From an uncultured Acidimicrobiales bacterium (GTDB lineage: Bacteria > Actinomycetota > Acidimicrobiia > Acidimicrobiales > SHLQ01): a stretch of DNA of 64,000 nt. Positions 4,842 to 64,000 of this stretch are shown here, piece by piece. Where the stretch lies: positions 713 to 64,712 of the forward strand of contig CALLAA010000145.1 in assembly GCA_938002955.1 (NCBI GenBank), read 5' to 3'. A program made the translations under genes and the position numbers. The notes under the pieces are model-generated. The model saw only the letters and a program-made list of their open reading frames with translations, searched no databases and was not told the origin of the DNA. The stretch's first letter is position 1; each line of letters opens with the position of its first letter.

Positions 4842-4864
4842 CTCCAACGGAAGGAAGGACCCCA

Positions 4865-5338
4865 ATGGGCTTTCATGACATCTCGATGGAGTCGATCAGC
4901 GGCGAGCAGATCGACTTCACCCAATTCGAAGGACAGTACGCACTCTGCGTCAACGTCGCGAGTTTTTGAGGCGCTACGCCTCAGTACGCAGGTCTGCGTA
5001 CGCTCCACAACGACGTTGACGGCCTCACCGTTTTGGGCTTCCCGTGCAACCAGTTTGGTGCGCAGGAACCCGGTACGAACCAAGAGATCGCAGAGTTTGC
5101 CTCGTCGACCTATGACGTGAACTTTCCCATGTTCGCCAAGATCGACGTCAACGGCGACGATGCCGCGCCGCTGTATCAGATGCTGAAAGAACAGCAGCCG
5201 GGCGACGATGACAGTGCCGACATTAAGTGGAACTTCGAGAAGTTCCTCGTCAACCCGCAAGGCGAAACGATCACCCGCTGGGGCACCCGCACCACGCCGG
5301 AGGACATCGCAGCCGAGCTGGCTGACCTCATGGGCTAG
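4865..5338 (+). CDS. Glutathione peroxidase, selenocysteine-containing (in-frame TGA at 4967-4969, residue 35)
   Basis: ATG 4865 is preceded by GGAAGGAAGGA. The same frame as track ORF 5033..5338 reads ...[48 protein letters not shown]...IKWNFEKFLV. This is the canonical GPx motif NVASx[C/U]GxT with TGA at the catalytic position. A SECIS-like hairpin lies 14 nt downstream. Confidence 0.85.
4984..5001 (+). promoter_or_regulatory. Bacterial SECIS-like hairpin for the GPx UGA
   Basis: GUACGC-AGGUCU-GCGUAC: 6-8 bp perfect stem. The apex GCAGGUCUGC is identical to my recollection of the apex of the E. coli fdhF SECIS. It starts 14 nt after the UGA. Confidence 0.75.
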
Positions 5339-5347
5339 GGCCTCTTT

Positions 5348-5392
5348 GCTGCGATCGCCCGATCTCTTGTACGTGAGGCGGGTGATCGCAGC
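5348..5392 (+). terminator. Possible intrinsic terminator after the GPx gene
   Basis: 14-bp stem GCTGCGATCGCCCG / CGGGTGATCGCAGC (one G-U pair) with a 17-nt loop. A TTTT run lies 6 nt downstream, not immediately adjacent. Confidence 0.4.
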
Positions 5393-19922: not shown

Positions 19923-22109
19923 CTACTGAACGCGTAGCTCTGGTACGCCAGAGACCAGAGTGCCAATGACCGAACTGGCATGACCGATCGCGATGAGTTC
20001 GGTGACGATGTCATCGGCGCGCTCGGCAGGCACCGCAGCGAGAAAGCCACCCGCAGTCTGTGGATCGAACAACACGGTCGCCCGTGGATCCGCTCCGGTT
20101 TGGGTGAGCGGAATAGCGGCGGCGTTGCTCGCATGGAGATGCGACCGCAGTCCCGACCGTGCGAGGTCGAGCGCGCCGTTGAATAGGGCGATGTTGTCGA
20201 GCTCGAGTTCGGCGGCGAGGCCCGACTCGCGGAGCATGCCGAACAGATGGCCGGCGAGACCGAAGCCGGTCACATCGGTCATGGCGGTAGCACCACCTGT
20301 AGCGAGGACCGCTGCAGCGTCCCCCTGTGGGGTTTCCAAGATGTCGAGTAGTGCGGCGATGTCTTGGCCGCGGGCACGTCGTTGCATTTCGCCGGCGAGC
20401 AATAGGCCTGAGCCGAGTGGACGGGTGAGTACCAGCCGTTGTCCGGCGGTCCCTCCAGCGAGTGTGATCGGTGCGTTCCTCGCGAGGCCCGTGATCGAGT
20501 ACCCGACCGACAGTTCAGCTCCCATCGATGTGTGCCCGCCGACGATTTCGGCGTCGGTCGTCTCGAGGGCCGCGCTCGTGCCAGCCATAATTTCGCCGAG
20601 CCACTCGCCCTGTAGTCCATGACCGAGTTGCGGGAGCGTGACGGTAACGAGAACCGCTTGGGGGTCGGCGCCCATGGCCCAAATATCGCCGAGCGCGTGC
20701 AGCGTTGCGATGCGCGCCATGCGGAAGGGATCTGGCGTGAACGTCCTGAGCTGATCGGTGGTGATGACCTGTCTCGTCTCGCCCATGAGAAGCAGGGCGG
20801 CATCATCGCCCGGCAACCGAACCACGTCGTTTCGCGTCGACGATGGCAATGCTCCGAGTGGCCCCTGCAGTACGTCGACACCGACTTTCGCGCCGCATCC
20901 ACCGCACAGCGGAGGTTCGTCTTCAACGATGTCGCGAAGGCCAGTCGCAGACCTCTTTGGCAGAGGGTCGAGCGTCATTTCCGGAAGCTCGCCGAGCTTT
21001 TCCATGAAGTCGCGATCGATCTTGTCCTTGAGGCGCCACAGCTGTCTGCCCTGGATGAAACGCTTGAACTTGTCAGCGGCCGCCGCTCGCTCGCCGAGCG
21101 AGATCAGCTTGAGGTAGTCCTGTTGTGGGTCGAACGCTTTGAGCTTGCCGCCGGTCAGCGCAGCCTGGATGTTGTGTGTGAGGATCGGCGCCTGGCGAAC
21201 GGCGAATACGCCGGCTTTGGGTCGAGGGGCAAAGCCCATGTGGGCGCAGTCGCCCGTCGCAAAGATCGATGGGTCGTTGGTCGAGCGCAGGGTTGGGTCG
21301 ATCGTAAGGAAGCCTTCGTGGCTGTCGAGGCCAAGTTCACCAAGCCAGTCGTATGGGCGAGCACCAGCAGCGCCCACGACAAGATCGGCGGCTATTAGCC
21401 CGGCGGTTGTCTCCACACCATCGGCGGTCACCGATGTGACCGCGGTGCCCTCGGCGAGGGTGATCCCCATGTTCAGCATGGTGTGGCGGATCTCGGTCCG
21501 AGCACGGTCACCGAGATCGTCAAGCACGGTCGATCGGTCGATCACCGTTACCGATGTTGTCACGCCTCCGGTTTGGAGTCGATGGGTCATCGCCATGGCG
21601 AGCTCGCATCCGCCGACTCCGCCGCCGACAACCGCGATGTTTGCGTCGTTAGCGGCTCCGGCTTGCTTGGCGGTCACATAGCTCGTCCAGCGGTCAGCGA
21701 AGTAGGTGAGCGGCTTTGCAGCGATGGCGTGTTCGGCGAACCCCTCGATGTCGGGCATCGCCGAAGAGATACCGACGTTGATCGAACAGACGTCGTAGGG
21801 AATCGGCGGCCGCCCTGGAATCGTGATGGTCTTGGCGTCGCGGTCGATCGTCTCGACGATCCCGAGTACGAGGCGTGCATCGGCAAACCGTGCGAGCCGG
21901 ACAAGATCGATGTCGAGCTCATCTCGTCCGTAGTGACCGGCGATAAAGCCCGGGAGCATCCCGGTGTAGGGCGCCGACGGGCTCGGGTTGATCACCGTTA
22001 GCCGCGCACCGGCGACCGGCTTCATTGCCCACGCACGAAGGAGCAATGCGTGCGCGTGGCCGCCGCCGACGAGGACGACGTTTTTGATGAGGGGGAGCGG
22101 GAGTTGCAT
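19923..22109 (-). CDS. selD: Fusion protein: N-terminal FAD/NAD(P)-binding pyridine-nucleotide-disulfide oxidoreductase domain + C-terminal selenide, water dikinase (SelD, Cys form)
   Basis: N-terminus VVLVGGGHAHA and VVGGGVGGCE Rossmann motifs (Ndh/SQR-like). The C-terminal half begins PPLCGGCGAKVG (SelD Cys/Lys active-site loop), followed by PurM-like AIR-synthase-related domains. Confidence 0.85.
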   Translation of the reverse strand: MQLPLPLIKNVVLVGGGHAHALLLRAWAMKPVAGARLTVINPSPSAPYTGMLPGFIAGHYGRDELDIDLVRLARFADARLVLGIVETIDRDAKTITIPGRPPIPYDVCSINVGISSAMPDIEGFAEHAIAAKPLTYFADRWTSYVTAKQAGAANDANIAVVGGGVGGCELAMAMTHRLQTGGVTTSVTVIDRSTVLDDLGDRARTEIRHTMLNMGITLAEGTAVTSVTADGVETTAGLIAADLVVGAAGARPYDWLGELGLDSHEGFLTIDPTLRSTNDPSIFATGDCAHMGFAPRPKAGVFAVRQAPILTHNIQAALTGGKLKAFDPQQDYLKLISLGERAAAADKFKRFIQGRQLWRLKDKIDRDFMEKLGELPEMTLDPLPKRSATGLRDIVEDEPPLCGGCGAKVGVDVLQGPLGALPSSTRNDVVRLPGDDAALLLMGETRQVITTDQLRTFTPDPFRMARIATLHALGDIWAMGADPQAVLVTVTLPQLGHGLQGEWLGEIMAGTSAALETTDAEIVGGHTSMGAELSVGYSITGLARNAPITLAGGTAGQRLVLTRPLGSGLLLAGEMQRRARGQDIAALLDILETPQGDAAAVLATGGATAMTDVTGFGLAGHLFGMLRESGLAAELELDNIALFNGALDLARSGLRSHLHASNAAAIPLTQTGADPRATVLFDPQTAGGFLAAVPAERADDIVTELIAIGHASSVIGTLVSGVPELRVQ

Positions 22110-33876: not shown

Positions 33877-35505
33877 CTAGAGGACGTTGGACCGATCAGC
33901 GCGATCGACGATCAGAAGAACGACGGTCGTTATCACCATCAAGATGACGCTTAGTGCCATCGCCTGCCCGCGAATGCTCTGACCGGGTTGGCTGAGTAGC
34001 CGGCCAATCGCCAGCGGAACCGTCATGAAATCGGGCCGTCTGCCAACGAAACTTGTCGCACCGAACTCCCCGAGCGAGATGGCAAAGGCGAACCCAGCCC
34101 CCACGACGAGTGCCCGCCGTGCGATCGGGAAGTCGATATCGCGGCGAATCTGCGCCGGCGAACTTCCCATGCTCGCAGCGGCTTCACGAAGGTGCGGGTC
34201 GATCGATCGAAGGACTGGTACGACAGCTCGGGTGACGAAGGGGATGCCGATCAGAGCCTGAGCCAGCGGGATGATCACCCAGGATTGGCGTAGGTCGAGC
34301 CAGCCAGAATCGAAGGTGATGAGGATTCCGAAGCCCAAGGTCACCGCAGACGTGCCGAGCGGGAGCAAGTAGCCAAGGTCGAGGAGCCGCGAGATCTTCG
34401 TCGGGCTGTAAACGATCGCGATGGACGTCCACCCTCCGACCACCGTGGCGATCGCCGTCGCAAGGACCGCGAACCACAGCGAATTCGCGAGCGCTCGCTG
34501 TGGACTAACGGTGAGGAACGGCGGACGGTCGGCGAGCGATCGGTAGTTGTCGAAGCCCAGCCCCGAGCCGGTCTGCAGCGACTGCTCGACCAGGATGATG
34601 ATCGGGACGCTAAGCAGGCCGATCGTGGCTGCGATGGTCATCCAGGACAACCCGAGCGTGAGCGTATTGGGCGCAGGCTGGGCCCGCTCGGCGAGACGGT
34701 CGCTTTGAGCCAGCGATGAACGGAGCCGCAGATTGAGTGCGACGAGCGCGACGACCGCGATGAGCTGGACGATCGAGAGGGCGGCGGCGGTCGCAAAGTC
34801 CGTACGGCTAATCGCATATCGGAAGACCTCCGTTTCGATTGTCCGTTGGCGGGCGCCACCCAAGATGAGCACAACCCCGAACGAGGTGAAGGTGAAGAGA
34901 AACACGATCGACGTCGCCGCAAGCAACGACGGGCGAAGACGGCGAAGGGTGATTCGAAAGAACGTCTGCCAGGCCGGTGTGCCCAGCGTTCGTGCCGCGT
35001 GCTCGTCGTCTCGGGAGAGCTGGCCCCAGTAGCTCCCGACCGTTCGCACCACGACGGCCACGTTGAAGAAGACGTGAGCGACCAGGATGGCGAACACGGA
35101 CTTGGTGAGTGAAAAGGGGCCCGACGTCGCACCGAGTCTGTCGCCGGTCGCCAGGAATGCACCAGCCACGACAACCGTTGGAAGCACGAAGGGAACGGTT
35201 ACGAGCGCCTGGACTAAGCGCCGGCCGCGAAAGGTCACGTTTGCAATGACTGCGGTGAGCGGAAGCGCAACGATCAAGGTCAACACGGTTGACGCGACCG
35301 CCTGCCACAACGTGAACCATGCGACCGAACGAATCGACGATGACGAAAACGTGTTCAGCAGTGCACCGTCGCCATCGGAGAGGCCGCGCCACAGAAGCTG
35401 GGCGACGGGCCAGATGAAGAAGAGCGCGAGAAAGATCGTCGGGCCGGCCACCAGGCCGGCCCGACGGAGCGTCTGTGGCGTTAGCTGGCCACGATGGCGT
35501 TCCAT
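33877..35505 (-). CDS. thiP: Thiamine/iron-type ABC transporter permease, duplicated two-domain (ThiP-like)
   Basis: About 12 TM segments with two binding-protein-dependent permease domains. Downstream of the ThiB-like SBP under a TPP riboswitch. ATG 35505 is preferred to track start 35583. Confidence 0.7.
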   Translation of the reverse strand: MERHRGQLTPQTLRRAGLVAGPTIFLALFFIWPVAQLLWRGLSDGDGALLNTFSSSSIRSVAWFTLWQAVASTVLTLIVALPLTAVIANVTFRGRRLVQALVTVPFVLPTVVVAGAFLATGDRLGATSGPFSLTKSVFAILVAHVFFNVAVVVRTVGSYWGQLSRDDEHAARTLGTPAWQTFFRITLRRLRPSLLAATSIVFLFTFTSFGVVLILGGARQRTIETEVFRYAISRTDFATAAALSIVQLIAVVALVALNLRLRSSLAQSDRLAERAQPAPNTLTLGLSWMTIAATIGLLSVPIIILVEQSLQTGSGLGFDNYRSLADRPPFLTVSPQRALANSLWFAVLATAIATVVGGWTSIAIVYSPTKISRLLDLGYLLPLGTSAVTLGFGILITFDSGWLDLRQSWVIIPLAQALIGIPFVTRAVVPVLRSIDPHLREAAASMGSSPAQIRRDIDFPIARRALVVGAGFAFAISLGEFGATSFVGRRPDFMTVPLAIGRLLSQPGQSIRGQAMALSVILMVITTVVLLIVDRADRSNVL

Positions 35506-36599
35506 CGCTCGGTCCAGTCGTCCCGGTTCGTTTCGATGACGGCCGGGTCGATCGTGAGGGCATCGTCCACAAGCGGTCCCCATTGCACGAAGGCGTCAGG
35601 GAGGGCTGCTTCGCCATTGGCGGGGTAGACGAACATGTTCAAGGGAACGTCTTCTTGGAACGTCGTACTCAGCATGAAGTCGATCAGCGCAGCTGACGCT
35701 TCTGGGTGCGCAGTTCCGTTGAGAACGCCCGCGAATTCGATCTGGCGGAAACAGCTGTCCTGCAACACCCCGGTTGGAGGTGCGTCCACGGGCGGGTCGG
35801 CGAACAAGAACTCCGCTGGTGGGCTCGAAGCGTACGAGGTGACGATGGAACGAGCGCCGCCTCCGGCAATGAACTCGCCGTAGTACGCGTCGTTCCATCC
35901 GGCAGTGATCGAGACGTCGTTGTCGACGAGGGACGTCCAGTAGTCCTCCCACCCGTCTTCGCCGTACTTTGCGATCGTGGCGAGAAGAAACGAGAAGCCG
36001 GGGGATGATGTCTCGGGGTTCTCGGTCACGAACTGGCCAGCGTTGACTGGATCGATGAGGTCATCGAGAGACTCGGGTGCGTCTCCGGGTAGCGCGTCGG
36101 TCCAGTAGTTGACGCATACGTCGCCGTAGTCGATTGGCGTCAGGCGATTGAACGGGTCGAGCTCAAGTTCGTCAGCCACATCGTCGAGGCCTGGCGATGC
36201 GTACGGCACGAAGAGCTCGGCGTCGATTCCCCGGCACATGAAGCTGTTGTCGATGCCGAACAAAACATCGGCGGTGGGATTGTCCTTGGTCAACACGGCC
36301 TGGCTGACGAGCTGACCCGCATCACCAACCGCAACTTGTTCAACGATGATTCCGGTCTCGTCGGTAAATGCAGCGAGTGTCGATTCGCTAAGGGTGAACG
36401 AGTCATGGGTTGCCAACGTGATCGTGGTTCCGGCGAGGTTGTCGGTAGTCACGTCGGTGATGGCGTCGATCGATGGCTCATCGAAACAGGTCGACGCGGC
36501 CTCGCTCAATGTGTCGTCTCCGCACGCGCTAGCGAGCAACGCAAGTGCTGCGAGCGCAACGAGGGTCCGAGCCGATAGGCGAACAAATACGTGGTTCAT
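35481..36599 (-). CDS. thiB: Thiamine ABC transporter substrate-binding lipoprotein (ThiB/TbpA-like)
   Basis: Lipobox LLASACGD. Similarity to TbpA (ITLATHDSF..., ADVLFGIDNSF). Immediately preceded by a TPP riboswitch. Confidence 0.75.
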   Translation of the reverse strand: MNHVFVRLSARTLVALAALALLASACGDDTLSEAASTCFDEPSIDAITDVTTDNLAGTTITLATHDSFTLSESTLAAFTDETGIIVEQVAVGDAGQLVSQAVLTKDNPTADVLFGIDNSFMCRGIDAELFVPYASPGLDDVADELELDPFNRLTPIDYGDVCVNYWTDALPGDAPESLDDLIDPVNAGQFVTENPETSSPGFSFLLATIAKYGEDGWEDYWTSLVDNDVSITAGWNDAYYGEFIAGGGARSIVTSYASSPPAEFLFADPPVDAPPTGVLQDSCFRQIEFAGVLNGTAHPEASAALIDFMLSTTFQEDVPLNMFVYPANGEAALPDAFVQWGPLVDDALTIDPAVIETNRDDWTERWNAIVAS

Positions 36600-45945: not shown

Positions 45946-46596
45946 TTATGTGCTCTCGAGCCAGTCGATGTCGTCGCGAAGTTGTGACTCGCTCCAGCCA
46001 CTGCGCAGCCGGGATTCGCCGCCGCCCTGAATCACGACGAAGGTGGGAACTGCATTCACGCTGTACTCGGCAAAGAGCTGGTCGATTTCGGCTGCGTGTG
46101 TGTCGTCGGTGATATGGACCATCGATTCGACGCCTTGAGCCGTAACGAACTCGTCGAGCTCGGCGGTGGTGCCATCGAGGCCGACGCCGACGAAGGTGAC
46201 ATCAGGGTGCTGTAGTTGAAGCTCTGCGACCGCAGGAGCTGCTGCTTTGCAATGTGGTCACCAGGGAGCCCAGAACCACAACACGAGGTCGGTGTCGCCG
46301 GACAGGTCGACCTGCTGGCCCACGACGCCGGCGTTGTCGTCGGCAGGGGCCTCGGCGGTGTCGACGAGCGCTGTGGTCGTTGTCGCCGCTTCCGTCGTGG
46401 TTGTGGTCTCGACCGCTGGTTCGGTTTCGGGTGGGGCGGTCGTCTCGGGTGCGGTCGTGGTCGTTTCCGGCAAGGTTGTATCCGGTGTCGACGCTGTCGT
46501 CTCCGGCGCCGCCACCTCGGCGGCGTCGCTCGAACTCGCACAGGCCGAAGCCAGAAGGCCAAGGGCCGTGAGCAAACACACAAGTCGACGCCGCAT
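45946..46596 (-). CDS. Thioredoxin-fold lipoprotein, selenocysteine-containing (in-frame TGA at 46258-46260, residue 113; redox motif W-A-P-W-U-P-H-C)
   Basis: Track ORF 46258..46596 ends ...LVLWFWAPW-TGA. The same frame continues PHCKAAAPAVAELQLQHPDVTFVGVGLDG...NAVPTFVVIQGGGESRL...WLEST-TAA (stop 45946-45948), completing a TlpA/ResA-type domain. Lipobox LLASAC and a Thr/Glu/Pro-rich linker. A SECIS-like hairpin follows the TGA. Confidence 0.85.
46220..46240 (-). promoter_or_regulatory. Bacterial SECIS-like hairpin for the thioredoxin-like UGA
   Basis: AGCU(C)CUGC-GGUC-GCAGAGCU: 8 bp with one bulged C and a GGUC apical loop. Starts 17 nt after the UGA. Confidence 0.7.
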
Positions 46597-57830: not shown

Positions 57831-59299
57831 GTCGTCGTCCGTTCGCCACTTTTCGCGCGCCCATTGCGGTTGCGATGGTGGTGTTGGGTCTTATTCTGGC
57901 CGCAGTTCCCGCAAATGCACAGGATTCAACGCCTGCAACGCCGCCCGATAGCTCGGTGACCACCGCGCAGGAACCATTGGGTGGTGCAAACGGGTTCTTC
58001 GATGTTGTCGAAGTCAACGGGTTGATCGACCCGGTCATGGCGAGCTTCATCAACCGGAGCCTCGACGAATCGCTGAACAGCGGCGCTCGGGGTGTCGTTC
58101 TGCAAATGCAGAGCGATGGCGTTGCCATCTCCGACGATGAGCTCGCTGCGCTCACCACCCGCATTGCCGAGTTCGACATTCCGGTTTCGGTGTGGCTTGG
58201 GCCATCCGGCAGCGGCAAGGCACTCGGTGGTGCTGGCCAGATCGCGCTCGTCTCGTCGCGCATCGGTATGACACCCGGCTCTGAGCTTGGTGACTTTGGC
58301 GAATCGGTTCTCTCGGGAGCCGCAGCCGACGGTGCCTTCGTCTCCCGATTCGAGAGCGGCTTCTCGGGCGGAGTGTTCGGGTATGAGGACTTGTTCCCTG
58401 AAGGCGAAGAGGGAGCAGAGGCAGCAGCGGACATCGTCGTGCTCATCGAGGACGGCGCAGCGATCCAGAACGCACCCACCGTGTTGCTGCACCTGCTCGA
58501 ACTAGCCGACTTTGAGTCTCGCGTCGTGCAAGCGGGTGAAGAACTTCCAAATGGCAGCATCTTGGCCGAGGACGCAGATCCAATCCGCGTCCCGGTGAGC
58601 AGCACCCGGTTCGTGACGCTGCCCCTTATCGATCAGCAGTTCCACACCTTTGCCTCTCCCGCTGTTGCCTTCTTGCTGTTCGTGATCGGCATGGGTTTGC
58701 TGGTCTTCGAATTGTTCACCGCAGGTGTTGGTGTCGCCGGTGTGATCGGGGCCGGATCGTTTCTCGCCGGCAGCTATGGTCTCGCCGTGCTCGACGCTCG
58801 CTGGTGGGCAATCGCCATGCTCGTCATTGCCTTCATTGGATTCGCGATCGACGTGCAGTCCGGGATCCAGGCGTTCTGGAGTGCCGCGGGCTCGATTCTG
58901 CTCGTCCTTGGTTCGCTACTTCTCCTACCCGACCACAGCATTGGTTGGCTTCCGTTGAGCGTCGGCATCATCGGTGTCTTGCTCGCAATGCTCGGCGGTA
59001 TGCCCGCAATGGTTCGTACCCGCTTCTCCACCCCGACGATCGGTCGCGAGTGGATGATCGGCGAGGTTGGCGATGTGGTCGAGGCGGTCGACCCCGAGGG
59101 TGTTGTCACGTTGCGCGGCGCACCGTGGCGTGCTCGCACCAACCGCGCGACCCCAATCGCTGCCGGTGAGCGCGCTCGAGTGGTCGAGGTCGACGGGTTG
59201 CTCCTCGAGGTCGAGCCCGAGAGCGGCGGCGCGGCCGATTACCGTGAGCGCCGTTCGGCAGAACACGCAGAAGCTGTCGAGGCTGAAGCCGAGTCATAG
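57806..59299 (+). CDS. NfeD-family membrane protein (ClpP-class protease-like domain + TM region + C-terminal OB domain)
   Basis: Signal/TM, ClpP-like N-domain, 4-5 TM segments, C-terminal NfeD OB fold (VTLRGAPWRARTN...GERARVVEVDGLLLEVEP). The start is uncertain: 57806 overlaps the divergent ArsA-like start by 25 nt, and an internal start near 57872 is possible. Confidence 0.7.
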   Translation: MGIENRSARRRPFATFRAPIAVAMVVLGLILAAVPANAQDSTPATPPDSSVTTAQEPLGGANGFFDVVEVNGLIDPVMASFINRSLDESLNSGARGVVLQMQSDGVAISDDELAALTTRIAEFDIPVSVWLGPSGSGKALGGAGQIALVSSRIGMTPGSELGDFGESVLSGAAADGAFVSRFESGFSGGVFGYEDLFPEGEEGAEAAADIVVLIEDGAAIQNAPTVLLHLLELADFESRVVQAGEELPNGSILAEDADPIRVPVSSTRFVTLPLIDQQFHTFASPAVAFLLFVIGMGLLVFELFTAGVGVAGVIGAGSFLAGSYGLAVLDARWWAIAMLVIAFIGFAIDVQSGIQAFWSAAGSILLVLGSLLLLPDHSIGWLPLSVGIIGVLLAMLGGMPAMVRTRFSTPTIGREWMIGEVGDVVEAVDPEGVVTLRGAPWRARTNRATPIAAGERARVVEVDGLLLEVEPESGGAADYRERRSAEHAEAVEAEAES

Positions 59300-59314
59300 C
59301 CGGCTGGCGAGTGC

Positions 59315-59578
59315 TTAGAGCAGGGCCCGACGTTCTTGTTCGCTGAGTCCGCCCCACACCCCGTGTGGTTCGCGGATCGCTATCGAATACTCCCGACACT
59401 CACCGAGTACGGGGCATGACATACAGATGTCTTTCGCCTTTGCTTCGCGAGCGAGCTTTTCCCGCTTGCGCTCGGTCGTGGGTGGGGGAAAGAACACTGC
59501 CCCCAATGGTCCGCGACACGCCGCCTGTTGTTGCCAGAGCAGAGCTCCGGATTCTGTTGTGCTGTGTTGTACCGCCAA
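59315..59578 (-). CDS. WhiB-family [4Fe-4S] transcriptional regulator
   Basis: Four Cys (C-x30-C-x2-C-x5-C: AACRG...[10 protein letters not shown]), GVWGG turn, basic tail. TTG start 8 nt after AAGGAGG. Confidence 0.85.
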
Positions 59579-59681
59579 CTATTTCGCCTCCTTACGGCGA
59601 ACCTAGGCGCGCTGTGACGGAAACCACAAGGGGGGCGGAAAATCGGGGAAGAAGTTCACCTCGACGTTACGAAGTGGTCGA

Positions 59682-61400
59682 TCAGCGTTTCGGCAGTCGC
59701 GGTCCAGCAATACGCAGATTTTCTCGACGTCGCGTCATCCCGCCGGCGTCGAGTCGCGCAATGAGTGGCATTGCATGCTTGCGGGTATTGCCCATCGCCG
59801 TACGAACCTCAGAGACCGTGACGCCATCGGGTTTGGCCGCTAACAGATCGGCGACCACGAGTGCTGCGGCATCGATTACCTCGGGTGCGAAGTAGACCCC
59901 GTCCTCGACGATGACTTCGCCTCGCCTGACGAGCTCACGTAGCTCTTCTCGGTCGACGCCGTCCGGCTCGGGTGGAGCGAACCCACCCTCTCGAAGCGCA
60001 AGAACAAAAGGGTGTGCGAGCAGCGGGTCGGCTGCGGCAGCGAGTGTCGCACGACCGCCGTTGACGACGACCTCGTTGAGGAGCTCGAGTGTGGCGCGCT
60101 CTTGATCGGACAGCGTTGCCGTGTCGAGACCGAGCGCTCCCGCCGCGTCGATCTGTGAGCGGAGTGACTCGATCGCTTCTTGCAACGCGTGCGGGTCGAC
60201 AACCCACACGCCGACGTCGGCATCACGTTGTTCGCCGGTGAGTAGCGCGAGCTCGGTGGTCGTCACCCAGCCCCGTTCGGCGATGACCCGGTCGACCGAG
60301 CGGTCGGGGCTTGCTTCGGCCGCTTTGGTCTGGGGATCGACGTCGAGCACTTCGCCGCCGCCGATGGTCTCGGCCCGTCCGGACTCGCGAAGGACGAAAC
60401 GGTCGCCGGGAAGCAGGGGAAGGGCAACCGGGAGATAGATGCGGATGTTGCCCGTCGTGCCCGGGGCGATCGCTGGTCCGAGGATTCGAATTCGGACGGC
60501 ATGTTCTCCCGCTCCCATGTAGAGCAGATGGGCGCCGCGTCGCGAGACCTCATGGTCGAGCGAGTCGAGAACGCTGAGCGCGCCGTCGAAAACGGTGGTC
60601 TCATGCCATTCGCCTTCCCGCACGAGGGCATCGCCGCGGGCGACTTCGTCATGGCTGACCCCGCTCAGGTTGATCGCAGTGCGGTTGCCAGGTCCGACCT
60701 TGGTCCGCTGTGCGTGGAGGCTCTGCATGGCGCGGACTCGTACGGACTTGCGTTGGGGGAGTAGCAACAGTTCGTCGTCGACGCGGATACGGCCGCCCGT
60801 GAGCGTGCCGGTGACGACCGTTCCCGAGCCCTTGGCCGAGAACGCACGGTCGACCCAGAGCCGTGGCGTGCCACGGTCGGCTGCATCGGGAGTTCGAGCG
60901 AGTAGCGCGTCGAGCTCATGAAGCAAATTGTCGATGCCGGTCCCGTCGAGAGAATCTACGGGAACGATCGGTGCACCTTCGAGGAACGTGCCCTCGACCC
61001 GTTCCTCGACATCGAGAATGGCCAGCTCGATGAGGTCCTCGTCGGCGAGGCCGATCTTGGTGAGTGCCACAACGCCGTGTCGGACGCCGAGCAGATCGAG
61101 AATACGAAGGTGCTCCTCGGTCTGCGGCTTCCAGCCTTCGTTTGCATCGACGACGAACAGGCACGCATCTACCGCACCGACCCCGGCAAGCATGTTCTTC
61201 AGGAATCGAATGTGCCCCGGAACATCGACCAGCGAAAGTACTTTGCCGCTCGGGAGTTGCGTCGATGCAAAGCCAAGATCGATGGTGAGGCCACGCGCCT
61301 TCTCCTCTGCGAAACGGTCCGGGTCAGTACCGGTAAGGACACGTACGAGGGTCGACTTGCCGTGGTCGACGTGACCGGCGGTGGAAATAACATGACTCAT
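59682..61400 (-). CDS. selB: Selenocysteine-specific translation elongation factor
   Basis: GTPase G1-G4 (AGHVDHGKSTL, DVPGH, TKID-like LTKIGL) followed by EF-Tu-like domains II/III and a winged-helix C-terminal extension. Directly downstream of selA. Confidence 0.9.
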   Translation of the reverse strand: MSHVISTAGHVDHGKSTLVRVLTGTDPDRFAEEKARGLTIDLGFASTQLPSGKVLSLVDVPGHIRFLKNMLAGVGAVDACLFVVDANEGWKPQTEEHLRILDLLGVRHGVVALTKIGLADEDLIELAILDVEERVEGTFLEGAPIVPVDSLDGTGIDNLLHELDALLARTPDAADRGTPRLWVDRAFSAKGSGTVVTGTLTGGRIRVDDELLLLPQRKSVRVRAMQSLHAQRTKVGPGNRTAINLSGVSHDEVARGDALVREGEWHETTVFDGALSVLDSLDHEVSRRGAHLLYMGAGEHAVRIRILGPAIAPGTTGNIRIYLPVALPLLPGDRFVLRESGRAETIGGGEVLDVDPQTKAAEASPDRSVDRVIAERGWVTTTELALLTGEQRDADVGVWVVDPHALQEAIESLRSQIDAAGALGLDTATLSDQERATLELLNEVVVNGGRATLAAAADPLLAHPFVLALREGGFAPPEPDGVDREELRELVRRGEVIVEDGVYFAPEVIDAAALVVADLLAAKPDGVTVSEVRTAMGNTRKHAMPLIARLDAGGMTRRRENLRIAGPRLPKR

Positions 61401-61446
61401 TTCCTTCCCTCCGGGGGGCGTTCAAGCGCCACGCAGGCTGGGCGCC

Positions 61447-61530
61447 GGAGGCGCTGGTCGCGAGCGCGGGTCGCCTGGCGCTGGTTGTGAGCGCTGGTCG
61501 CCTGGCGCTGGTTGCGAGCGCTGGTCACGG
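61447..61530. repeat. 27-bp tandem repeat (about 3 units) in the selA-selB intercistronic region, running into the selA stop codon
   Basis: GAGCGC[G/T]GGTCGCCTGGCGCTGGTTG[T/C] at 61462-61488 and 61489-61515. Partial units on both sides. Confidence 0.9.
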
Positions 61531-62814
61531 GGCGCCAACGCGCTGGAGCGCGTTCGTGATTGCGAGGTCATCTTCGGTATCGACCGAACGCAGATCGAGG
61601 ATCGTCGTGTCCTCTGCGACCCGGGCCATGATCGGCACCGGAGCGGTCCGCAGCGCCTTGCGATGATCTCCCTCGATCGCAATTCCGACCGACGGAATCT
61701 CGACCGTGGGCAGGGTCCCACCGCCGGGCACCGCCATCGTCTCGATGATTGCCCCGACACCGCCAGCGTTCACGATGGCCTCGGCTCTGGCCTGCAACGA
61801 ACCGTTCGAGGCCATCGCCATTCGCCAAAACGGGATGGCCTCCCAGTTCCGATTCATGTACTCGAGGGCGAGTTCCTGGAGCGCTCCGAGGACCAAACCG
61901 CCAGGGCGCAGAGCACGGGCGAGTGGATGTCGTCCACAGGCATCGACAAGGGCCTTGTCGCCAGCGATGATGCCTGCCTGTGGTCCGCCGAGCAGCTTGT
62001 CCCCAGAGAAGGCGACGAGGGACGCGCCGTTCGCCAGAGTCTGTTTGGCTGCGGGTTCATCGGCGAGCCAGCTGGGCGGCCCCGATGGTAGCCACGGACA
62101 TGCGGCATCGAGGAGGCCCGAGCCAATGTCGGCCACGAGCGGTACATCGAAGTTCGCCAGAGACTGAATGGTCGGCATCTCGGTGAAGCCCTGGATCGTG
62201 AAGTTCGACTGGTGGATCTGCATGACGAGCGCAATATCCGATTCGGGATCGTCGATGCGTTTCCTGTAATCGGCGGCGCGCGTGCGGTTGGTCGTACCGA
62301 CTTCGACGAGGTGGGCGCCGCTTTGTTCCATCACATCTGGAACACGGAACCCGCCGCCGATCTCGACGAGCTCGCCACGCGAGACCGCAACGCCCCGGTT
62401 CTCAGCCAGCGCGGCCAGGATCAACATGACCGCCGACGCGCAATTGTTCACGACCATTGCGGATTCGGCTCCACACAATCGTGCGAGCAGTGTTGGTGCG
62501 TGGGCTTGCCGAGATCCCCGCTCGCCTGTGCTGAGGTCGAGTTCGAGGTTCCGGAAGCCGGCGTCTTGATGCACCCCGTTAGGCGCACGCCCAAGGTTCG
62601 TGTGCAAGAGCGTTCCGGTGGCATTGATGACCCGTTGGAGCATCGCTCGCTGCAGTGCCTCAGCTTCGCGTCGAGCCGACTCAGGATCGCCGTTCGCTAT
62701 TGCCGAGCGAGCCGCGTCCACAAGAAGCGGATGGGGCAACCCGGTATCGGCGATCGAACGGGCGAGCACATCCACCGACGGCGGGCGTTTCTGGTTCGTG
62801 TCGGGTTCTCGCAC
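61525..62814 (-). CDS. selA: L-seryl-tRNA(Sec) selenium transferase
   Basis: NLELDLSTGERGSR and PLP-lysine motif FSGDKLLGGPQAGII. 429 aa. Confidence 0.9.
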   Translation of the reverse strand: MREPDTNQKRPPSVDVLARSIADTGLPHPLLVDAARSAIANGDPESARREAEALQRAMLQRVINATGTLLHTNLGRAPNGVHQDAGFRNLELDLSTGERGSRQAHAPTLLARLCGAESAMVVNNCASAVMLILAALAENRGVAVSRGELVEIGGGFRVPDVMEQSGAHLVEVGTTNRTRAADYRKRIDDPESDIALVMQIHQSNFTIQGFTEMPTIQSLANFDVPLVADIGSGLLDAACPWLPSGPPSWLADEPAAKQTLANGASLVAFSGDKLLGGPQAGIIAGDKALVDACGRHPLARALRPGGLVLGALQELALEYMNRNWEAIPFWRMAMASNGSLQARAEAIVNAGGVGAIIETMAVPGGGTLPTVEIPSVGIAIEGDHRKALRTAPVPIMARVAEDTTILDLRSVDTEDDLAITNALQRVGAP

Positions 62815-62909
62815 CAGACCAGTCTACGAGATGTGCCTGGACACAGTCGCCGCCGCAGCAACCACACCAAACCATTCACTACCTAGCAAAACATGCCGAT
62901 ATTGCCACT

Positions 62910-64000
62910 GTGAGTACCATTTTTGATTGGGCGGACACGCTTGCTGAGTATGACGCGGAGTGTCTCGGAGCGGTTGTGCTCGACCGCGAATTTCGCATTC
63001 GGGCCGTTTCCGACTCGGTTCTGCAACGCGGTGGTTATAGCAAGGACCAGGTCATTGGGATGAGCGCACTCGATGTAGTGCACCCCGATGACCTTGCGAG
63101 AGCGGCCGAGGTCATCGCCGAAGTAGCGATGATCGATGGCGGTCGAGCCCCCGGTATGTATCGCTTGATGTTCGCAGACGATGGTTGGGCGACGTTCGAA
63201 CTACAGGCGGTCAACCTCGGCGACAGCTACGACGGCGCACTCGTTATGCGTTTCGACGAAGTGTCGCCGGAGGTTCGCAGCAGGGCTTTTGCCGAAGACG
63301 TCATCGACATCACTCAGTTGCTCGTCGAAACGTGTTCTACCGCTGAGAGCATCGGTCGGATCATCGACTTCGCCGAGCGCCACGTCGACGGCATTTCGGT
63401 TGCTGTTACGACGTTCGCTCCGGACGGATCGACCTCGACAATCTCCCGGCGCGACCTTCCGGCCGAGATGCTCGAAAGCAACCGCGCCTCGCATCCACTG
63501 TCGCTTCCAACCGAGGTTCGCGAGGCGTTCGACCTCCAACGTTCCGGTCCCTGGCGCGCGAACAACCGCGCCGGCATCTTGAGCCACGACGGATGCTGCG
63601 TCGTTATCGCGCTCGCCGATGATGCGGGCAAAACGCTCGGCTATGTGCAGGTCCTGCGATCGGCAACGGCCGAACCAGAAGAATCCGAATGGCTGGTCTA
63701 TGCGTCGCTCTCGCAGATTCTGCGGGCGGTGTTGGTCCGGCACGGTCTTGACAACATGTTGCGGTTCGCCGCCGATCACGACTCGCTGACCGGTCTCATG
63801 AACCGCCGTCGCCTGCTCGAGCTCATGGGCGACAATCCCGAGCTCGGTGGCTCCGGACTCTTGATGATCGACCTCGACAAGTTCTCCTGGATCAACAACA
63901 CCCTCGGCCACGCGGCCGGCGACACCGCCTTGATCTCCGCCGGTCAGTGCATGTTGGCCGCCTCGCCCGCCGAAGCCATCGTGGCTCGCCTCGGCGGTGA
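62910..64000 (+). CDS. PAS/GAF-like sensor diguanylate cyclase, 3'-truncated by the window edge
   Basis: An open frame from GTG 62910 to the window end, absent from the ORF track because no stop is reached. The PAS-like N-terminus (VVLDREFRIRAVSDSVLQRGGYSKDQVIGMSALDVVHPDD) leads to a GGDEF-domain onset (DSLTGLMNRRRL...LMIDLDKFSWINNTLGHAAGD...VARLGG-). Confidence 0.75.
   Translation, partial: MSTIFDWADTLAEYDAECLGAVVLDREFRIRAVSDSVLQRGGYSKDQVIGMSALDVVHPDDLARAAEVIAEVAMIDGGRAPGMYRLMFADDGWATFELQAVNLGDSYDGALVMRFDEVSPEVRSRAFAEDVIDITQLLVETCSTAESIGRIIDFAERHVDGISVAVTTFAPDGSTSTISRRDLPAEMLESNRASHPLSLPTEVREAFDLQRSGPWRANNRAGILSHDGCCVVIALADDAGKTLGYVQVLRSATAEPEESEWLVYASLSQILRAVLVRHGLDNMLRFAADHDSLTGLMNRRRLLELMGDNPELGGSGLLMIDLDKFSWINNTLGHAAGDTALISAGQCMLAASPAEAIVARLGG

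Follow-up and report, generated by a model that had tools for sequence, protein, structure and literature searches.

Is a glutathione peroxidase (GPx) gene that is interrupted by one in-frame TGA a broken gene, or a complete one in which the UGA is read as selenocysteine (Sec)? The question is raised by positions 4865-5338 of a 64-kb stretch of contig CALLAA010000145.1, from an uncultured Acidimicrobiales bacterium (this whole stretch is called the window below). A program-made list of open reading frames (ORFs) shows only a 101-residue piece at this locus (5033..5338). The original prediction, made from the bare sequence, had pointed this out and had proposed that the frame encodes a full-length GPx whose catalytic UGA is recoded as Sec by means of a selenocysteine insertion sequence (SECIS) hairpin just downstream. 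That central proposal drew support from every computational test applied, and we put at roughly 0.93 the probability that the locus is one intact gene, its stop codon recoded as Sec via the hairpin. Coordinates of the features discussed are collected in Table 1.

One frame, one family and a single internal TGA

The frame that opens at ATG 4865 closes with the TAG at 5336-5338 after 158 codons, and the only stop inside it is the TGA at 4967-4969. With Cys put in for the TGA, the product matches the Pfam family GSHPx (PF00255) at 129.3 bits (E 5.6e-38, curated cut-off 27 bits) over residues 3-108 of 157, an alignment that spans the TGA and so bears out the full-length reading. GPx chains from the PDB align over residues 3-152 with E values down to 3.6e-41, and the first residues, MGFHD, line up with those of orthologues, which begin MGFHD or MNFHE. 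Two NCBIfam models, NF007900 (BtuE-type) and TIGR02540 (Gpx7), also match, with scores under their equivalog cut-offs; judged by these scores, the product belongs to the GSHPx family and is not an equivalog of either model.

Standard gene callers had been expected to mis-annotate such a gene, and they do. Public assemblies that hold the exact gene call it as a 34-residue ORF plus a 101-residue ORF, the closest proteins in the databases (71-97% identity) are without exception fragments of 101-121 residues, and no full-length match exceeds 62% identity. The gene is split or shortened in every public assembly examined.

A search through GTDB genomes, each species represented once, yielded the 80 nearest loci with 81 GPx genes, in which the catalytic codon is TGA in 52 and TGC or TGT in 29. 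Together with the window gene these make an alignment of 82 homologues (53 TGA genes and 29 Cys forms), in which the window's TGA occupies the column of the peroxidatic Cys, the catalytic residue on which it had been predicted to fall. The orthologue comparison proposed at the outset as a check thus came out in favour of recoding in codon, in conserved hairpin and in open upstream frame. The TGA orthologues are hosted by Acidimicrobiia, by marine and freshwater Gammaproteobacteria (Pseudomonadales, OM182, Halioglobus and Azotimanducaceae) and by Myxococcota, with one more metagenome-assembled genome (MAG) labelled Alphaproteobacteria. The best-matching loci are from Acidimicrobiales and Ilumatobacteraceae MAGs, on which ground the window is attributed to an Acidimicrobiia bacterium (Actinomycetota).

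In a neighbor-joining tree the TGA genes form one clade, with two Cys forms nested inside it. One of these, L022 (Pseudomonadales MAG CAYGBI010000023.1), has TGC and a decayed relic of the hairpin (GUACACAGGCCUGCGUAC, -3.1 kcal/mol). The other is a TGC copy at locus L063 (Ilumatobacteraceae MAG JBEBGL010000007.1), which carries a TGA copy as well, about 0.5 kb away. The hairpin has decayed in both nested genes, and on sequence comparison they look like natural cases of Sec-to-Cys reversion or duplication. Synteny was considered as a further line of evidence and dropped: the PrpD and EamA neighbors are common only to the closest relative (L001), and the 3 kb around each orthologue contain no sel gene.

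A hairpin that accompanies the TGA

The hairpin GTACGC-AGGTCT-GCGTAC begins 14 nucleotides after the TGA, where it had been predicted, and its loop begins 21 nucleotides after the TGA. When folded, this 18-mer (4984-5001) pairs into a stem of 7 bp, GUACGCA/UGCGUAC, capped by the tetraloop GGUC; its energy is -8.5 kcal/mol (z = -3.55). The sequence occurs nowhere else in the window, and 0.06 matches are expected when up to three mismatches are allowed. The published general model of the bacterial SECIS (bSECIS; PMC13188914, Fig. 2 legend) describes a loop of 3-9 nucleotides, an upper stem of 4-16 bp, a G in the first two loop positions, a UGA-to-loop distance of 16-37 nucleotides and a minimum free energy of -7.5 kcal/mol or lower; the GPx hairpin agrees in every respect (4-nucleotide GGUC loop, 7 bp, GG first, 21 nucleotides, -8.5 kcal/mol). 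A smaller hairpin right after the TGA (GGCGCUACGCC, 4970-4980) was excluded from the element because its codons vary freely at synonymous sites (1.26 bits at G36, 1.76 at T38 and 1.45 at P39).

Each of the 53 TGA genes carries the hairpin at an identical offset, 14 nucleotides past the TGA, and none of the 29 Cys forms has it. The 7-bp stem position and GGUC loop are found in 50 of the TGA genes, and the other three have 6 bp and a CGGGUU loop. On average the 18-mer folds at -8.24 kcal/mol in Sec forms vs. -0.94 kcal/mol in Cys forms, with no Cys form below -3.8 kcal/mol.

The association extends to public metagenomes. A scan with the 33-nucleotide pattern TGAGG....AC....CAGTACGCAGGTCTGCGT found the TGA and hairpin together on at least 120 contigs (marine, lake and other), and all matches listed are in GPx-like frames; among the 120 matches listed, 113 have FPCNQF and 118 have an open upstream frame. 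The pattern recovers the family cleanly and could serve for mending annotations.

Sec machinery, and read-through without selenium

The original prediction was also right that selA, selB and selD are all in the window. Each passes its curated cut-off: selA at 387.5 bits on TIGR00474 (cut-off 267.9), selB at 292.4 bits on TIGR00475 (cut-off 242.25) and selD at 260.7 bits on TIGR00476 (cut-off 125). The C-terminus of SelB matches the winged-helix domain (Pfam SelB-wing_3) that is predicted to bind the SECIS. The selD gene, which was found by motif search about 38 kb from selA and selB, is the C-terminal half of a 728-residue Pyr_redox_2::SelD fusion (481 bits on TIGR03169, "Nterm_to_SelD", cut-off 310); its SelD part is a Cys form, not a Sec form, at the catalytic N-terminal motif (CGGCGAK). 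The region past 62900, tried as a site for selD beside selA, holds a PAS/GGDEF-type ORF instead.

The rival explanation that survives best accepts that UGA35 is translated and leaves out selenium: near-cognate tRNAs would insert Cys or Trp, and the hairpin would serve as a general read-through or pausing signal. It can appeal to the fact that selC is not seen in the window. We nevertheless consider it very unlikely, as selA, selB and selD are all present and intact, and the hairpin fits the consensus for SelB binding, with a GGUC loop at the correct spacing and the same apex as the E. coli fdhF SECIS. An enzyme with Trp as its peroxidatic residue would be inactive. Moreover, the hairpin decays on a switch to TGC (L022 and the L063 paralogue), which is to be expected of an element with a role in Sec insertion only.

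Coding on both sides of the TGA

Two other explanations deny that the frame is translated across the TGA at all, and both depend on the status of the 34 codons before it. In nine fairly close pairs, the ratio of nonsynonymous to synonymous substitution rates (dN/dS) is 0.07-0.52 before the TGA and 0.04-0.32 after it, which indicates that the 34 upstream codons, too, are under purifying selection. Every TGA gene has an open frame of 32-37 codons from its start codon to the TGA. Codon-usage log-odds, from a model trained on validated genes, are 0.51 before the TGA and 0.49 after it, against a validated-gene average of 0.35. Upstream dN/dS, open frames and codon usage therefore exclude both a pseudogene and a downstream start. 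Because TGA ends 10 of the 26 Pfam-validated ORFs in the window, the standard code applies and UGA is not globally reassigned.

The first of the two takes the downstream ORF alone as real, starting at TTG 5033 or at some other post-TGA codon, with the 34 codons separate or untranslated. The 101-residue ORF does have a possible TTG start, and databases hold such versions. This we rate as more improbable still than selenium-free read-through, since such a protein would be missing both its peroxidatic residue and the beta strands with which the thioredoxin fold begins, and since the upstream segment, conserved in frame under the selection just described, starts at a conserved Met after a Shine-Dalgarno stretch. 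The codon TTG 5033 itself specifies a Leu inside the protein (VLGFPCNQF) that is conserved across all homologues, full-length Cys forms among them. The second, a pseudogene formed when a Cys-type GPx was inactivated by a TGC or TGT to TGA nonsense mutation and left with both pieces decaying, has going for it that gene callers output two fragments and that TGA is one mutation from either Cys codon, but we give it almost no credence when 52 orthologues in three phyla and at least 120 contigs from metagenomes retain the TGA, neither side has acquired another stop or a frameshift, dN/dS is below 1 and codon-usage scores are above the validated-gene average on both sides, and the conserved hairpin goes with TGA forms only.

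Selection on the hairpin as RNA

In Sec forms, the six codons Q40-R45 have a normalized codon entropy of 0.08, vs. a mean of 0.77 for 47 other conserved codons, and they fall below every one of those 47 (Mann-Whitney U = 0, p = 4e-5). The same codon positions in Cys forms have entropies of 0.64-0.96. This freezing of synonymous sites is, among the comparative data, the strongest signal pointing to an RNA element tied to the TGA.

Pairing is preserved in 98.9% of stem cells in the 53-sequence alignment. One stem pair changes from U-A to U-G in 12 sequences, and another from G-C to A-U in three (L015, L021 and L023, in MAGs labelled Alphaproteobacteria, OM182 and Pseudomonadales). The latter change costs two amino acid replacements, Ala42 to Thr and Arg45 to Cys, so that QYAGLRTL becomes QYTGLCTL, and it is a clear case of RNA structure dictating protein sequence.

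The opposite view, that the 18-mer is conserved through protein-level constraint or codon bias on QYAGLRT and that no RNA element exists, can cite the location of the hairpin within a conserved segment and the presence of QY.GL in all GPx homologues; its chance of being right is as slight as that of a pseudogene, because Cys forms keep Q, Y, G and L yet use all synonymous codons, because the hairpin codons of Sec forms are nearly fixed and those of other invariant residues are not, because Sec forms have Ala42 and Arg45 where Cys forms have mostly Glu or another residue at 42 and Glu at 45, and because residues 42 and 45 change jointly to Thr and Cys with base pairing kept.

Evidence on the other side

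Several observations count against recoding, or lessen the force of the evidence for it. Taken alone, a hairpin with a GGUC loop and 7 bp or more is unremarkable, with one observed on both strands of the 64 kb and about 0.9 expected from shuffles. The significance of this one derives from its position relative to a TGA that replaces the catalytic Cys, and from the comparative data; by our estimate, the probability that such a hairpin falls by chance inside the SECIS spacing of the sole TGA of this kind is roughly 1e-4. The structural signal is mainly invariance, with a single truly compensatory pair in three related sequences, and in one orthologue (L013) the stem is weaker, at -3.9 kcal/mol. 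The neighbor-joining tree carries no support values.

Rfam SECIS models gave no match in 4860-5100 at E up to 10, and at the gathering threshold Rfam found neither a SECIS nor a tRNA-Sec in the whole window, only a thiamine pyrophosphate (TPP) riboswitch. The proposed check against bacterial SECIS models had a divided outcome, agreement with the general bSECIS model and no match in Rfam. The Rfam miss is uninformative because, as the E. coli fdhF control shows, these models are gene-specific: fdhF scores 87.1 bits on SECIS_2 (RF01988, gathering score 70) and 35.8 bits on SECIS_3 (RF01989). Lastly, neither ARAGORN nor Rfam found selC, the gene for tRNA-Sec, in the window, and the public contig bearing the window's SelA extends to just 3 kb. 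ARAGORN detected no tRNA of any kind in the whole window, and Rfam detected no tRNA-Sec in 59000-64000 at E up to 10. Given that selA, selB and selD are present, selC would be elsewhere in the genome or atypical.

The enzyme and a proposed mechanism

The catalytic tetrad of GPx enzymes consists of Sec or Cys, Gln, Trp and Asn. Its members here (U35, Q67, W122 and N123, with Sec or Cys in the first position) are invariant in 82 of 82 homologues. The resolving Cys behaves differently: 27 of 29 Cys forms have it, and none of the 53 Sec forms does. At this position the window protein has Ala79, which aligns with the Cys of the "QFC" segment in yeast Gpx3 (3cmi). The Cys forms without a resolving Cys are exactly the two that fall inside the Sec clade, L022 and the paralogue at L063, and among the metagenome matches listed it occurs in 0 of 114 scorable sequences. 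Other Cys residues (alignment columns 28 and 105) are found in about 60% of Sec forms, not in the window protein. Everything considered, the product is very probably a monomeric, GPx4-like thiol peroxidase with Sec as its peroxidatic residue.

We infer the following course of events. During translation the mRNA hairpin GUACGCA-GGUC-UGCGUAC would sit 14 nucleotides past the UGA, where the complex SelB.GTP.Sec-tRNA(Sec) would bind it through the C-terminal winged-helix domain of SelB. SelB would then deliver Sec at UGA35 in competition with release factor 2, the Sec-tRNA(Sec) having been made by SelA with selenophosphate from the SelD fusion protein. Peroxides would be reduced at Sec35 within the Gln67/Trp122/Asn123 tetrad. 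Because the resolving Cys is absent, recycling of the selenenic acid most likely falls to an external thiol or to a redoxin that acts on Sec directly, as in eukaryotic Sec-containing GPx (Sec-GPx), and not through an intramolecular disulfide.

Actinomycetota as a phylum typically lack glutathione. A bolder reading, which we offer tentatively and think unlikely as it stands, is that the TGA genes make up a "1-Sec" GPx clade of single origin without resolving Cys, widespread in aquatic Acidimicrobiia, in marine and freshwater Gammaproteobacteria and in Myxococcota, and that in Actinomycetota it serves as a selenium-dependent peroxidase recycled without glutathione. On that reading the reductant might be a thiol system of the mycothiol/mycoredoxin type, or thioredoxin might attack the selenenyl intermediate directly. 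Such a coupling to the reductant, if real, is not known from any other Sec-GPx.

Comparison with known systems

The description of the hairpin as an fdhF-like SECIS holds for its apex and not for the rest. E. coli K-12 fdhF reads TGA-CACGGCCCATC-GGTTGCAGGTCTGCACC, and the 10-mer GCAGGTCTGC (GCA-GGUC-UGC), 15 nucleotides after its TGA, is identical in the GPx hairpin and lies in the same Ala-Gly-Leu frame. Its apex is one codon nearer the UGA (the loop starts 18 nucleotides after UGA in fdhF vs. 21 in GPx). Both elements are within coding sequence just after the UGA, with the C-terminal domain of SelB presumably the binder in each. The fdhF SECIS has in addition a bulged U and a lower helix (the fdhF-type Rfam model is a 55-nucleotide, two-part helix with the bulged U below a GCA-GGUC-UGC apex). 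The GPx hairpin has neither of these, being a continuous 7-bp stem, and gives no SECIS_2 match; the host proteins belong to different families. E. coli SelB contacts the bulged U and the G-U of the loop, and a plain GGUC-type hairpin suffices for the SelB of Moorella. The GPx hairpin is not a member of the fdhF-type SECIS family (RF01988/RF01989), and it probably works like the fdhF apex.

Bacterial Sec-GPx was predicted in Treponema denticola (WP_010957027.1; Kryukov and Gladyshev 2004), which was still the sole case among sequenced genomes in a 2006 survey (PMC1794560). Five Sec-GPx sequences came from the Sargasso Sea, with a bacterial SECIS shown (PMC1088965), and 40 from Global Ocean Sampling (GOS; PMC2398784). 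A 2026 review lists a "GPX-like protein, UxxT" as "predicted with high confidence" and not experimentally verified (PMC13188914). The statement that Sec-GPx is rare in bacteria is thus true of the 2006 genome survey and does not extend to metagenomes and MAGs (40 sequences in GOS, 52 of 81 genes here). The window gene resembles these sequences in its PF00255 fold, in having a predicted Sec for the peroxidatic Cys in a U-G-x-T motif, in a bacterial-type SECIS directly after the UGA with G in the apical loop, and in a distribution mainly among aquatic or marine bacteria (PMC1088965, PMC2398784, PMC13188914). The likeness to the Sargasso, GOS and T. denticola sequences rests on published descriptions, and we make no claim that they share a subclade. 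The window gene differs in its Acidimicrobiales host and in belonging to a clade of Acidimicrobiia, Pseudomonadales-type Gammaproteobacteria and Myxococcota. Within Acidimicrobiia, Sec machinery is described for Actinomarina in a 2026 preprint that does not mention GPx, and neither that preprint nor the 2026 review (PMC13188914) mentions Acidimicrobiia as GPx hosts.

Cys-type 2-Cys enzymes (e.g. yeast Gpx3/Hyr1, PDB 3cmi; poplar GPx5, 2p5q; the E. coli BtuE-like proteins of NF007900) have the same fold and length, are likewise monomeric without the tetramer loop, and share the Gln, Trp and Asn residues. A further example is the mycothiol peroxidase Mpx of Corynebacterium. Bacterial Cys forms are 51-62% identical to the window GPx. 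The 2-Cys enzymes differ in having a peroxidatic Cys where the window GPx would have Sec, and a resolving Cys where it has Ala79; because that resolving Cys is absent, their thioredoxin-recycled mechanism with an intramolecular disulfide is unlikely in the window GPx. Mammalian GPx4 (PDB 2obi, 6hn3), which aligns over residues 3-149 with E about 1e-33, is like the window protein in its Sec peroxidatic residue, its lack of a resolving Cys and its monomeric state, and differs in its eukaryotic SECIS, which is located in the 3' untranslated region and read by SBP2/eEFSec, not by SelB. Earlier phylogenies suggested that Sec evolved independently in bacterial and eukaryotic GPx (PMC1088965).

A second TGA gene and other features of the window

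A codon-usage log-odds scan for TGA-interrupted ORFs across the window identified five sites that look coding on both sides, two of them credible: the GPx gene and a likely selenoprotein gene on the minus strand. (An earlier scan, filtered by GC content at third codon positions, produced 47 mostly wrong-frame candidates, missed the GPx gene and was replaced.) In the second gene WAPW-U-PHC stands in place of CxxC, and matches to Pfam Thioredoxin, Thioredoxin_8, Redoxin and AhpC-TSA run across its TGA. A bulged hairpin, GCUC-C-UGC-GGUC-GCA-GAGC, lies at about 46239-46221, 18 nucleotides past the UGA, with the same GGUC loop as in GPx; in its 56-nucleotide context it is energetically unexceptional (z = -0.14). 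The occurrence of a second TGA gene with a GGUC-loop hairpin supports Sec recoding of the GPx gene. The remaining three candidates are antisense or leader artefacts.

Past the GPx stop codon is a hairpin that folds at -36 kcal/mol (z = -4.0) and is probably a terminator, to judge by the fold; a simple terminator scan did not flag it. For the downstream EamA gene, public assemblies put the start at about 5441, and the ORF list puts it at GTG 5393. Three genes upstream of GPx, at 748-2265 on the plus strand, is a gene for a 505-residue MttB-family protein (trimethylamine methyltransferase superfamily), which is of the non-pyrrolysine type since it has no in-frame TAG. The TPP riboswitch (RF00059; 36589-36703, minus strand; 57.4 bits, above the gathering score) precedes a minus-strand ORF that ends near 35481, and it lies beside an ABC-type permease gene (33877-35583).

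Table 1. Positions in the window of the GPx gene, its signals, the sel genes and the second TGA gene
Feature	Position	Strand	Evidence
Shine-Dalgarno-like stretch GGAAGGAAGGA, 5 nucleotides before the ATG	4849..4859	+	read from sequence
Predicted Sec-GPx coding sequence, 157 residues + TAG	4865..5338	+	translation; Pfam GSHPx; PDB matches
TGA, predicted Sec codon, residue 35, in the column of the homologues' peroxidatic Cys	4967..4969	+	alignment
Predicted bacterial SECIS hairpin GUACGCA-GGUC-UGCGUAC, loop 4991-4994, within codons Q40-T46	4984..5001	+	folding, conservation
Strong terminator-like hairpin, 10 nucleotides past the GPx stop, then a weak U tract GAUUUUG	5348..5392	+	folding
selD, fused to an N-terminal pyridine nucleotide-disulphide oxidoreductase	19923..22109	-	Pfam Pyr_redox_2 + AIRS + AIRS_C
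Second likely selenoprotein, thioredoxin-fold, lipoprotein-like (MRRRLVCLLTALGLLASAC)	45946-46596, TGA 46260-46258	-	Pfam, codon usage
selB, Sec-specific elongation factor	59682..61400	-	Pfam GTP_EFTU, Beta-barrel_SelB, SelB-wing_3; TIGR00475
selA, L-seryl-tRNA(Sec) selenium transferase	61525..62814	-	Pfam SelA, E 2.2e-94; TIGR00474

Implications

The gene is a new, mis-annotated member of a predicted family, and it does not overturn current understanding. What it adds is incremental, namely the assignment to a lineage, the uniform loss of the resolving Cys, an amino acid covariation driven by the SECIS, and the Sec-to-Cys reversions. With an 18-nucleotide SECIS and a 157-residue product it offers a compact system for studying the constraint that a SECIS places on protein sequence, the reversion of Sec to Cys, and the choice of reductant. 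Because the gene is split in assemblies, both the peroxide-defence capacity and the selenium dependence of these aquatic bacteria are under-counted. Should the tentative reading of a single "1-Sec" clade prove true, that clade would give bacterioplankton a large selenium sink and an antioxidant activity that annotation has systematically missed.

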